Virus record (IMG/VR): IMGVR_UViG_3300023179_000012
Origin: a virus
Length of the DNA: 64,000 nucleotides
Direction: 5' to 3' (one strand)
Positions 33,806 through 40,642 of the stretch are shown here, one piece after another. Numbering within the stretch: position 1 is the first letter of the stretch; each line of letters opens with the position of its first letter. Under the pieces are notes generated by a model. The model saw nothing but the letters and a program-made list of their open reading frames with translations, was not told the DNA's origin and made no database searches. Both the position numbers and the translations under genes were made by a program.

Positions 33806-33823
33806 AATTATTCCTTAATTAAG

Positions 33824-33896
33824 TAGGAGTGGTGGGAGTCGAACCCACACTGTACGGATTTTAAGTCCGTTGTCTCTGCCATTGGACTACACTCCC
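33824..33896 (-). tRNA. tRNA-Leu(UAA), short variable loop, no encoded CCA
   Basis: Cloverleaf GGGAGTG/CACTCCT, ACGGA-CTTAAAA-TCCGT, GTGGG-TTCGACT-CCCAC, A73. Confidence 0.95.
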
Positions 33897-33901
33897 AAAA
33901 A

Positions 33902-33976
33902 GTAATCGACTATAATAGTCTTGGATTGAGGTTGATTATGTTGTGCCTCTATCTCTGACATATTATAGCCGACTAC
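33902..33976 (-). ncRNA. structured RNA between gene and tRNA, carrying a sequence antisense to the upstream RBS
   Basis: 16-bp stem with 2 G-U pairs; inner part contains CATAATCAACCTC. Confidence 0.6.
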
Positions 33977-33985
33977 AAATTAGAT

Positions 33986-34270
33986 TCAACCGTTGTTGTG
34001 AGCCTTCTTTAGACGGCGAACAATCTCAGCCATAGCCTCGATATTATCGACTGTCTTAGTAGGCTTCGCACGTTCCATAGCAGGAAGTTCCTCACCCTTC
34101 TTAGCCAGAGCAGCCTTTGTACGAGCATAACGAGCCATCGTACTAGCGACCTTCTGACCAGTCTTTGTAGCGATTTCAGCATAAGTCTTGGACGAATAAA
34201 CCGCCTCAAGAAACTGCTCATCACTGCAACGAACACGCTTCTGCTTCTCAACATTAGTAACTTCAGCCAT
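33986..34270 (-). CDS. small basic putative HTH DNA-binding protein
   Basis: TYAEIATKTGQ HTH-like segment; GGAGG RBS gives start MAEVTN at 34270. Confidence 0.6.
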   Translation of the reverse strand: MAEVTNVEKQKRVRCSDEQFLEAVYSSKTYAEIATKTGQKVASTMARYARTKAALAKKGEELPAMERAKPTKTVDNIEAMAEIVRRLKKAHNNG

Positions 34271-34347
34271 AATCAACCTCCAAATTAAAATCCAAACTTA
34301 CTTCACGGTTTCGGTCACGCGACCTCATCCACCCGTGTTGTACTATC

Positions 34348-34375
34348 ATTCTATCATAGGTTATCGGCTTGTCAA
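34348..34375 (-). promoter_or_regulatory. sigma70-like promoter with CCGATA box
   Basis: TTGACA-AGCCGATAACCTATGA-TAGAAT. Confidence 0.8.
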
Positions 34376-35142: not shown

Positions 35143-35859
35143 TTAACTTTCAAGTACAAAACTCCAGTATCGACTATCTTCTTTATTTTGCAAAGCATCC
35201 CAGTAGATTGAACGAGCAATATATGATGGAACCTTATGCTTGCCACAGTTTACAACCCAATGACGCTCCATCTTCTTATAAGAATCAGTACCACTCTTGC
35301 TCTTATTGTACTTTAAATGTTCCATATCGTAAAGACGCAACTGATGAACATCTCCGCACAAAACTCTTGCCTCATTAGGATGAATCATTTCAAGAGCAAA
35401 ACTAACCTTAGCCAGACCAATGCCATTAATCTTGTTTACGATTTCATCACGCTTCTTGACATGACCCTTTTTGGTAGTAAAATAAAAATCTTTAGGATTA
35501 TCCCAAAACTTTGTGGCAAAATCCCAAATATATTTTGTACGATTATTGTGTAGACCCACACCACTTTTGTGGAGTTTTTCTCTCAGAATATTCTCATCAC
35601 CAAGCCATTCATCAAAATTCTTGATAGCATTATATCCGGCACAATTGCCTTTCCATGTAGTGTGAACGCTGCAATATGCAAAAAGATAACGACGGAAAAT
35701 ATCCTCCATGTTTTGTGGACGCACACTCTCCCAATATTCTTTATAAGATACCACCTTATCTTTAGCAAAAGTAGCAAAGAAAGTATCGGCTTTCGTCTTG
35801 TCAAGAGTTGTATTTTGAATCTGAATAACAGTGTTTTCAACAATCATGGTTTTCTCCAA
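35143..35859 (-). CDS. HhH-GPD DNA glycosylase (archaeal OGG-like)
   Basis: LHKSGVGLHNNRTKYI, INGIGLAKVS HhH, GDVH. Confidence 0.7.
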   Translation of the reverse strand: MEKTMIVENTVIQIQNTTLDKTKADTFFATFAKDKVVSYKEYWESVRPQNMEDIFRRYLFAYCSVHTTWKGNCAGYNAIKNFDEWLGDENILREKLHKSGVGLHNNRTKYIWDFATKFWDNPKDFYFTTKKGHVKKRDEIVNKINGIGLAKVSFALEMIHPNEARVLCGDVHQLRLYDMEHLKYNKSKSGTDSYKKMERHWVVNCGKHKVPSYIARSIYWDALQNKEDSRYWSFVLES

Positions 35860-39662: not shown

Positions 39663-39802
39663 TTCTTTTTCTTTTTTGATGGATTTTCTAGTTTATCTAA
39701 TTTTTTTTGTAATTTATTGAAATATTTATCTTCTGCCAATTTTTTTGGGTCATGGTCTTGTTGCTTCTTAAATTTCTTTAGTACTTTTTTCCAGAACTTC
39801 AT
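39659..39802 (-). CDS. small Lys-rich protein
   Basis: 47-aa ORF, not in track (MKFWKKVLKK...SKKKKK); TGA overlaps the DUF1501 ATG. Confidence 0.5.
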   Translation of the reverse strand: MKFWKKVLKKFKKQQDHDPKKLAEDKYFNKLQKKLDKLENPSKKKKK

Positions 39803-39804
39803 AA

Positions 39805-40158
39805 TGGATGCGGCGGGAATCGAACCCGCGTCCTAGCATACTTCAAATTATATCTTCTACAAGTTTATTATGTTCATAAGTTTTATGAAAGATTAAAGAA
39901 CAAACAACATTCATCTTTCCGTACCAACTAATCTCATGCTAGAACCCGTTGGCTATTCTAGCAGCCGAAGGATTTTACATCAATCTTTTGAACGCTACCT
40001 TCATCGCTTTCTAAGATTGTTGCTGTTATTTAATTAAGCAGCAAGGGCTAACTGAGTATTGCCAGTTAAAGCATTTAATCGACTTTTAAAGTGGCCGGTC
40101 GATTAACCACTACTTGCTAATATAATCTTCTTTATGTAGTCGAAACCTTTACGCACCC
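39805..40158 (-). ncRNA. ssrA: tmRNA
   Basis: Acceptor GGGTGCG/CGCATCC with G3-U70, T-arm, PK1 GTGG/CCAC plus TTAATCGAC/GTCGATTAA, tag frame GNTQLALAA* at 40034-40063. Confidence 0.97.
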
Positions 40159-40370: not shown

Positions 40371-40642
40371 TAGGGCGTGTAGGAGTCGAACCTACCTTTT
40401 GAATACCTTATCTTACCACTATAACTTTCGTTACCCAATGGTTTGTGGTCTGGACTTTATCTTTACCATAACTTTCGTTTTAGGTACTGCCTGTCAAGTC
40501 TCTACACCTTACTATTTTAATAGTCTTGGCTCGGTATTAGCATTTTAAAGCCTTCACCGAATTTAAGCAGTTCTACTCTACTGGTTTCCCAGTAGGCACT
40601 CATAATTTTAAGAGTATGTGCAACTACCGGCTGCAACGCCCC
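40371..40642 (-). tRNA. intron-containing tRNA, predicted anticodon UAU (Ile)
   Basis: Exons 40610-40642 and 40371-40411; spliced loop CTT^ATAA, stem ATACT/GGTAT, canonical T-arm, atypical D-arm and variable region. Confidence 0.8.
40412..40609 (-). ncRNA. group I intron (IC3, trnL-like), ~198 nt, no ORF
   Basis: P AAATTCGGTGAA, Q AATACCGAGCC, R GTAGAGACTTGA, S AAGATAAAGTCC; P1 CUU/GAG; terminal G; GAAA-capped helices. Confidence 0.92.

Follow-up and report, generated by a model that had tools for sequence, protein, structure and literature searches.

We analysed a 64,000-nucleotide (nt) stretch of viral DNA, IMG/VR record IMGVR_UViG_3300023179_000012 (hereafter the window), which contains a short open reading frame (ORF) whose own ribosome-binding site (RBS) is complementary to a hairpin lying just beyond its stop codon. 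The ORF occupies positions 33986–34270 of the minus strand, on which the promoter, leader, hairpin and tRNA described below are also located, and encodes a basic, helix-turn-helix (HTH)-like protein of 94 amino acids (TGA stop, 33988–33986). A promoter and a structured leader precede it. It is followed by a 75-nt hairpin in the untranslated region at the 3′ end (3′-UTR; 33902–33976), by a TTTTT spacer that reaches from the hairpin to the 5′ end of the next gene (33897–33901), and by that gene, a 74-nt tRNA-Leu with anticodon UAA (33823–33896). An earlier note on this DNA had proposed that the hairpin carries an antisense copy of the RBS and start codon. All of its coordinates proved correct, and the exact 13-nt inverted repeat at 33928–33940 and 34268–34280 is confirmed. 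The tRNA does follow within 6 nt, as that note had it, at a distance of 5 nt here and 4–7 nt in most relatives.

The promoter (34348–34375) is of the sigma-70-type early class, with TTGACA (34375–34370) and TAGAAT (34353–34348) separated by 16 nt and a TG extension; a promoter scan scored 11 of the 12 consensus positions plus the TG. An A-rich tract lies upstream of it on the same strand, and the promoter is kept in all relatives, including a homologue of only 47% identity (L086). Transcription would start near 34341, giving a leader of ~70 nt. Positions 34304–34337 of this leader are predicted to fold into an outer stem (CACGG/CCGUG) around an inner hairpin (GGUC-GCGU-GACC). The leader hairpins and the RBS are conserved across the IMG/VR relatives and the stems covary: the inner stem shows compensatory changes at 4 of 5 pairs among 27 relatives, and the outer stem occurs either as CACGG/CCGTG or as GCGAG/CTCGC. 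The unit's own promoter and its structured leader, both pointed out in the earlier note, are thereby borne out. Its description of the mRNA as starting with GAGGTTGATT-ATG is right about the RBS and start codon but not about the mRNA start, which lies a full leader further upstream.

The translation initiation region (TIR; 34268–34281) consists of the Shine-Dalgarno (SD) sequence GGAGG (34281–34277), the spacer TTGATT and the ATG (34270–34268). When the leader is folded alone, the SD is predicted to lie in an open loop. The target 13-mer, GAGGTTGATTATG (34280–34268), takes in SD, spacer and start codon, and its exact complement, CATAATCAACCTC (33928–33940), which we call the anti-RBS, starts 46 nt past the stop codon. 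To judge how unusual such a match is, we determined the longest exact complement between the TIR and the 120-nt 3′ flank of the same gene for 184 ORFs of the window. The most frequent length was 5 nt and the maximum elsewhere was 10 nt, compared with 13 nt here; a scan of many windows would produce such matches, however, so the real test is comparative. The sequence GAGGTTGA is found in the window only at the TIR and anti-RBS sites.

The anti-RBS is displayed at the apex of the hairpin. The lower stem pairs 33976–33961 with 33917–33902; these two 16-nt arms show 88% complementarity, and each of the two mismatches could form a G-U pair, so that the 16-bp stem described earlier comprises 16 pairs including two G-U pairs. 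The middle part contains internal loops, and above it an apical stem (GAGG 33949–33946 with CCTC 33931–33928) closes a loop of 14 nt. Nine nucleotides of the anti-RBS lie in this loop and its CCTC lies in the apical stem. The predicted fold thus reproduces the masking of CCTC by an internal GAGG, with CACAACAUAAUCAA left in the loop, that had been noticed from the sequence. The 94 nt after the stop codon fold with −29.8 kcal/mol (z = −6.1), and 0 of 200 shuffled sequences were equally stable. We also looked for additional copies of the hairpin and discarded that idea: a covariance model of it (R1) has one match in the window, at 74.5 bits, and one in each related type-1 phage genome. Rfam 15 gave no match at 33898–33980, even at E ≤ 1, and no YUNR seed motif was seen by eye in the hairpin loop. 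A kissing pair between the hairpin loop and the leader hairpin loop was rejected as well, as the two show no consistent complementarity.

For the comparative analysis we collected 118 IMG/VR loci, 61–95% identical to the queries used and lying on contigs of up to 244 kb, together with 7 contigs of more distant homologues. In almost every IMG/VR locus the stop codon is followed by a hairpin of 70–90 nt that ends 4–7 nt before tRNA-Leu(UAA). The T-run between hairpin and tRNA is not conserved, the 4–7 nt spacer of the relatives being of mixed sequence. An alignment of 31 distinct type-1 hairpins forms standard pairs in 95.1% of its cells, with both sides changed at 14 of the 19 pairs of the lower and middle stem. 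None of 500 shuffles reached any of five pairing measures, and slid registers gave only 27–56% pairing. The hairpin is a real, conserved RNA structure. While its stems vary, the apical GAGG and TCAACCTC are invariant in this alignment, as expected if CCUC must fit both the internal GAGG and the ribosome-constrained SD; in L122–L125 the internal partner is now AAGG, and AATCAACCTC is retained.

A conserved hairpin in this position may have a purely structural role, marking or processing the end of the mRNA: it could be a site for RNase III, a 3′ stabiliser that RNase P leaves behind or a leaky terminator standing before the tRNA, and the likeness between its apex and an anti-RBS would then be without regulatory effect. 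Several features are consistent with this explanation. The stem stops at nearly the same short distance from the tRNA, 4–7 nt, in nearly all loci, the clearest covariation is that of the lower stem, and the window shares with L011, L056, L037/L040 and L122–L125 a T-run after the stem. A plain hairpin with no anti-RBS occupies the same place in L081 (73% identity) and in L117. As a candidate intrinsic terminator, the window's hairpin is followed by U5 and has a long stem with an A/U-rich base, and the terminator scan made no call. Between the ORF and the hairpin we found neither a convincing terminator nor a conserved promoter, the boundaries of the transcript being those that we infer.

What such a role would not explain is the behaviour of the apex relative to the TIR. 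We counted pairing position by position in 25 distinct type-1 TIR/element pairs, with the CCTC of the element anchored on the GAGG of the SD and its first G taken as position 1. Positions 1–8 are paired in 96–100% of cases, positions 9–12 in 72–92%, and position 13, the G of the ATG, in 48%. Beyond position 13, pairing falls to a background of 4–32% at four of the five positions checked; the fifth, position 17, stands at 56%, which plausibly reflects base composition. The complementarity thus has a sharp end at position 13, and TCAACCTC, mostly extended to AATCAACCTC, stays invariant while the rest of the hairpin changes. On the other side of the proposed duplex, 34 of 38 distinct type-1 ORFs share one and the same target 13-mer, with its spacer TTGATT, despite a mean ORF nucleotide divergence of 14%. 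The spacer varies in hairpin types 2 and 3, where it is not the paired part.

In these diverged hairpin types, the apex is complementary to other parts of the same leader. Type 3 (L004, L010, L072) presents CAACCUCCAA(G) to UUGGAGGUUG. Among type-2 loci, L008 sets CAUAGUCAACC opposite GGUUGAUUAUG, one of the pairs being G-U, and most set UAACCAAUC opposite GAUUGGUUA of the leader. The large L045 subclade has lost the CAUAAU part; it keeps 8 nt and adds a different 9-nt extension, presenting CCUCAAAUCAUU against AAUGAUUUG(G)AGG. In the window itself, RNAduplex pairs TTGGATT of the leader (34289–34295) with AATCCAA (33927–33921), just 3′ of the anti-RBS, as a possible, lineage-specific second helix. 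A TTGG-containing motif (GTTTGGATT, GATTGGTTA or CTTGGAAA) is present 15–25 nt upstream of the SD in nearly all leaders (34286–34296 in the window). It echoes TTTGGAGG of the SD region, and in type-2 loci it is this motif to which the hairpin is complementary.

Measured as contiguous Watson-Crick pairs between leader or TIR and 3′-UTR across 68 distinct loci, the complement is 13 nt long in 15 loci, 12 nt in 6, 11 nt in 6, 10 nt in one and 9 nt in 22; in loci that lack the module it is 5–6 nt. The earlier note had looked to covariation of both 13-mers, and took loss of the complementarity in relatives as part of what would speak against it. The complementarity is held in type 1 and, with shifts from clade to clade, in the other hairpin types, apart from L002/L029, L068 and most of type 2, but it is missing from the distant homologues, and the exact 13-mer with its anti-start codon is confined to the 15 loci above. 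As to the covariation of the two 13-mers that it hoped for, own pairs are on average better than permuted ones, and the altered RBSs of L002/L029 and L068 are not cleanly compensated.

The shifts of register also bear on the idea that the apex, GAGGCACACAA...AAUCAACCUC, is a protein-binding site, for the HTH-like product or for a host RNA-binding protein, or that the 13-mers are DNA operator half-sites, the RBS complementarity being secondary. A fixed motif would not move between clades, as the apex does here, covering UUGGAGGUUG in type 3 and about −25 to −14 of the leader in type 2, and acquiring a bulged 9-nt extension in the L045 clade. The G-U-compatible changes and the bulges likewise point to RNA pairing, and neither family nor Foldseek searches detected an RNA-binding domain in the 94-residue protein. 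In favour of such a site, the CACACAA half of the loop equals the anti-RBS half in conservation and finds nothing to pair with in the TIR, and an HTH-like product could regulate its own gene. Weighing these points, we consider a protein site improbable.

We next compared duplexes formed by each locus's own TIR and element with permuted combinations. For 26 clade representatives, own pairs averaged −20.5 kcal/mol versus −18.6 kcal/mol for permuted ones, a value reached in 0 of 20000 permutations; within type 1 alone the means were −22.0 versus −20.9 kcal/mol (169 of 20000 permutations). After correction for accessibility, the window retains a predicted binding energy of −8.6 kcal/mol, and most CAUAAU-type and type-3 loci fall between −6 and −12.5 kcal/mol. 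An mRNA-end structure offers no reason why own pairs should be better than permuted ones, nor for the invariant apex, the abrupt limit at position 13 or the complementarity of diverged types to other parts of their leader, and we regard that role alone as rather unlikely to be the whole story.

A number of observations nevertheless weigh against regulatory pairing. The permutation test treats related clades as independent, which makes its p-values too optimistic, so that it lends support and not proof. Net predicted binding is weak in the L045 clade (−1 to −3.4 kcal/mol) and in most type-2 loci (about 0 to +5 kcal/mol), spanning −3.4 to +4.9 kcal/mol over the two groups. With so little variation in the RBS, genuine compensatory double changes are scarce. 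Lineages with an altered RBS do exist, carrying GGAGGATTTTATTATG (L002/L029 and others), GGAGGATTATTATG (L068) or GGAGGTGATTTATG; in L002/L029 and L068 the change is uncompensated, with duplexes no stronger than −6.6 to −14.4 kcal/mol. RBS pairing does not explain the conserved CACACAA sequence in the other half of the loop, which finds no TIR partner; our guess is that it may serve just as a non-pairing spacer. When 24 full transcripts were folded with RNAfold, 20 showed a probability of about zero for TIR–hairpin pairing, and only L056 contained it in the minimum free energy structure. We set full-length nested folding aside, because loop pairing with a closed lower stem is a pseudoknot and beyond nested scoring, and used duplex and opening energies instead. 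The absence of the anti-RBS from distant homologues (47–73% identity) indicates that the module is dispensable to the gene. Finally, anti-RBS 8-mers enclosed between pairing segments were shielded in this way and inert in B. subtilis reporters (PMC12697547, section 9), a result that also suits a hairpin acting only at the mRNA end, and the anti-RBS here likewise sits in a closed-stem context.

Taking both sides together, we lean, by a narrow balance, towards the hairpin being a 3′-UTR anti-RBS, similar to those of icaR and hok, that targets the mRNA carrying it, whether in cis or once processed. A single early transcript would comprise, downstream of the strong promoter, the structured leader, a very strong RBS, the 94-residue HTH-like ORF, the long hairpin and tRNA-Leu(UAA). 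In the window's clade the hairpin apex would have gained the anti-RBS (CAU)AAUCAACCUC, able to pair with the SD, the spacer and the AU(G) of the same mRNA. Once the hairpin was transcribed, its loop sequence CAUAAUCAA would seed on UUGAUUAUG, with nine nucleotides displayed as the seed; CCUC would be held by the internal GAGG, which the real SD would have to displace for all 13 pairs to form. The window's lineage may add the helix of AAUCCAA with UUGGAUU (34295–34289). Such pairing would compete with the 30S subunit and exclude the ribosome, so that translation of the HTH protein would be lowered or limited in time, and mRNA decay may change as well. We judge repression likelier than stabilisation because the duplex covers both SD and AUG.

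The pairing just described could take place within one molecule, between molecules, or through a released fragment if the lower stem were cut. RNase P is expected to cut at 33896/33897, the 5′ end of the tRNA, which would leave the hairpin and 5 nt as a protected 3′ end of the mRNA. The long stem is also a plausible substrate for RNase III: a lower stem of 16–25 bp with internal loops is compatible with the geometry of the T7 R1.1 type, and cleavage may occur there. One could imagine these steps combined into a processing-coupled timer, in which a single precursor holds the regulator mRNA, the anti-RBS hairpin and tRNA-Leu(UAA), and RNase P, possibly with RNase III in the lower stem, frees the apex as a small RNA or unmasks it, so that maturation of this TTA-reading tRNA coincides with shut-off of the early regulator. 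We think this arrangement doubtful; were it true, tRNA supply and the early-to-late switch would be linked through one RNA element. A promoter-like TTGAAT-16-TATAAT sequence (33962–33989) overlaps the stop codon and the 5′ arm of the hairpin. We dismissed it as a conserved internal promoter for the tRNA, as the window and L056 alone have it, 2 of 46 distinct relatives, and it is probably incidental; if active, it would give rise to transcripts that start inside the hairpin and carry an unmasked anti-RBS as a pre-tRNA leader.

If the hairpin were released, it might instead be a stand-alone small RNA, cut out between ORF and tRNA, whose main targets are other phage or host mRNAs with a strong SD. 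A C-rich anti-SD on a stable hairpin is what the staphylococcal small RNAs cited in PMC3868564 possess, and RNase P would set the 3′ end. As far as phage targets are concerned, the search for additional sites speaks against it. In three related phage genomes, GAGGTTGATT is found at the TIR and as the antisense copy, and two of the genomes have one extra site each, one with no start codon nearby and the other at an ORF end, ~13 nt before the next ATG. We therefore discarded trans targets in the phage, there being at most one extra site per genome and neither clearly a TIR: GAGGTTGATT occurs essentially at its own TIR only, and GAGGTTGA is unique to this gene within the window. A role of this kind appears to us very unlikely.

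Reading the 13-mers as DNA leads to a different proposal, namely that they are an inverted repeat flanking the ORF and serve as an inversion or recombination site, or are the remnant of an inverted duplication. The repeats are perfect over 13 bp and bracket the whole ORF, and recombination has reassorted leader and hairpin in three relatives: L043 combines an L042-clade leader with an L001-clade hairpin, and L013 and L078 have an L017-type hairpin behind other leaders, which points to recombination within or around the 282-nt ORF. Yet the match tolerates bulges and G-U pairs and differs in extent from clade to clade, all 124 loci are collinear with no inverted copy of the ORF, and there is no adjacent recombinase gene. 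This origin seems extremely unlikely.

The more distant homologues suggest how the element arose. In L081, promoter, leader and tRNA are all present and the hairpin is a plain one of 17 bp, with no anti-RBS. In L082–L085 (50% identity) the tRNA follows immediately after the stop codon, and in L086/L087 (47% identity) there is a G+C-rich terminator-like hairpin and no tRNA. The lack of an anti-RBS in these homologues, some of which have a plain hairpin, indicates that the anti-RBS is an add-on to an mRNA-end hairpin. Judging from these sequences, the basic and older job of the hairpin appears to have been that of ending or shielding the mRNA before the tRNA, with the anti-RBS added later. Conversely, L122–L125 and L037/L040 have a type-1 hairpin with its anti-RBS followed by a longer T-run and no adjacent tRNA; an ORF comes next in L122–L125, and in L037/L040 a tRNA lies 542 nt further on. 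The element thus travels with the gene and not with the tRNA.

The tRNA itself takes several forms. In many relatives, tRNA-Leu(UAA) after the hairpin is split in its anticodon loop by a group I intron (RF00028, 52–57 bits; for example L013:1913–2106, L023:1917–2110 and L045:1906–2093), and ARAGORN misses the tRNA in many relatives because of this intron; the copy in the window (33823–33896) is intronless. Two forms of the tRNA occur in this one position behind the hairpin: one of 74 nt lacking the long variable arm (window, L001) and one of 85–86 nt with a long arm (L006, L017). A tRNA with a Leu anticodon and no long arm is unusual in bacteria.

The protein has 687 homologues and only weak matches to known families: Sigma70_r4_2 at E = 0.008 and PHROG transcriptional regulators at E of about 1e-3. 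Its AlphaFold2 (AF2) model, with a predicted local distance difference test (pLDDT) score of 79.9, contains helices at residues 17–26, 30–37, 41–57 and 77–92, forming a three-helix HTH-like core and then a C-terminal helix. A Foldseek search against the PDB returned HTH DNA-binding domains in its top rows, none of them significant (E ≥ 0.18). DNA binding, as the earlier note had assumed, is thus plausible from the predicted fold, but the database matches that accompany it are weak.

The window also contains rIIA, rIIB, DNA ligase and a clamp-loader-like gene, which indicates a T4-like phage of uncultured lineages; in a DNA similarity search of isolated phages, only the tRNA was matched. A gene of the Ogg-HhH (8-oxoguanine glycosylase-like) family lies upstream of the HTH gene at a distance of two to three genes, at 35143–35859 (minus strand) in the window and 90–770 in L082. 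As this neighbour is common to the window and to relatives of 50% identity, the neighbourhood is older than the hairpin module. About 6 kb upstream, also on the minus strand, are a phage-encoded tmRNA (39802–40158, 132 bits, tag GNTQLALAA) and a group I intron (40432–40621, 58 bits).

Bacterial or phage 3′-UTRs documented to pair with the RBS of their own mRNA are few (icaR, hok and a few more), mostly known from single sequences. Here, uncultured T4-like lake phages supply over 120 natural variants, from which it can be read where the pairing is held and where it drifts, which makes the mechanism directly testable with small synthetic constructs. If the hairpin does act in this way, the phage would separate protein output from transcript output on an mRNA–tRNA co-transcript, and a compact, portable anti-RBS hairpin design would join the regulatory repertoire. 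If the hairpin proved inert, it would be a warning that conserved anti-RBS complementarity in a closed hairpin can lack effect.

The closest parallel is icaR of Staphylococcus aureus. There, a UCCCCUG motif in the 3′-UTR pairs with the SD of the same mRNA, blocking ribosome loading and creating an RNase III substrate, with cis and trans action left open (PMC3868564, Ruiz de los Mozos et al. 2013). Both cases have a pyrimidine-rich 3′-UTR motif, in the mRNA of a DNA-binding regulator or putative regulator, that is complementary to that mRNA's own SD. As in icaR, the anti-SD lies within the 3′-UTR of its own transcript, given the boundaries that we infer, and the complementarity is kept in relatives, with the exceptions of L002/L029, L068 and most of type 2. 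The motif of icaR is 7 nt long, is separated from the stop codon by 260 nt of a long 3′-UTR and has been proven experimentally, whereas the candidate described here, derived from sequence, spans 8–13 nt and reaches the start codon, and forms the apex of a long covarying hairpin, just 46 nt past the stop codon, that abuts a tRNA.

In hok mRNA, the partner of the 3′ fbi element is tac, at the extreme 5′ end, and ucb conceals the SD indirectly (Thisted 1995, Franch 1997, summarised in PMC9841398). In hok, too, an element at the 3′ end binds the 5′ region of its own mRNA, which thereby stays untranslated, and 3′ processing changes this state. But hok encodes a membrane toxin and is controlled by the antisense RNA Sok, whereas the locus in the window has a direct complement of SD and start codon and an HTH-like product. 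The product is basic and HTH-like, and we found no antisense promoter or RNA family on the opposite strand, so the locus does not belong to the hok/Sok class. The comparison with type I toxins drawn in the earlier note is therefore apt for the mechanism but not for the product, which is not toxin-like. In phage T7, the unprocessed 3′ end of the early gene 1.1/1.2 mRNA is reportedly able to pair with an upstream ribosome-binding region, and RNase III cleavage at the 3′ hairpin is said to relieve the inhibition. T7 is said to have defined RNase III sites between genes and no tRNA, whereas in the window RNase III cleavage is a possibility.

The 5′/3′-UTR duplex of Bacillus subtilis hbs is 14 bp long, A/U-rich and of about −19 kcal/mol (Braun et al. 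2017, PMC5737220). The hbs mRNA is highly expressed, encodes a small basic DNA-binding protein and has a structured leader and an exceptionally strong SD, features that recall the locus in the window. A 5′/3′ duplex of this kind can instead protect an mRNA (PMC5737220): that of hbs modulates RNase Y cleavage of the leader and stabilises the message, and is not described as covering the SD. The duplex proposed here would cover SD and AUG and so, unlike that of hbs, must compete with ribosomes. In the same bacterium, 8-mers resembling the anti-SD (aSD) sequence and located hundreds of nucleotides downstream, 3′-UTRs included, repress in vivo by pairing with the RBS, so that initiation is inhibited and decay promoted (Gill et al. 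2025 preprint, PMC12697547). Anti-RBS sequences are generally depleted from genes (PMC12697547), whereas one is conserved here. The hairpin is not homologous to the icaR, hok, hbs or T7 elements, and the principle of an mRNA pairing its 3′ part with its own RBS is already known. What distinguishes the present case is that it is borne by a phage, that its anti-RBS is carried on the apex of a covarying hairpin, and that this hairpin abuts a tRNA.

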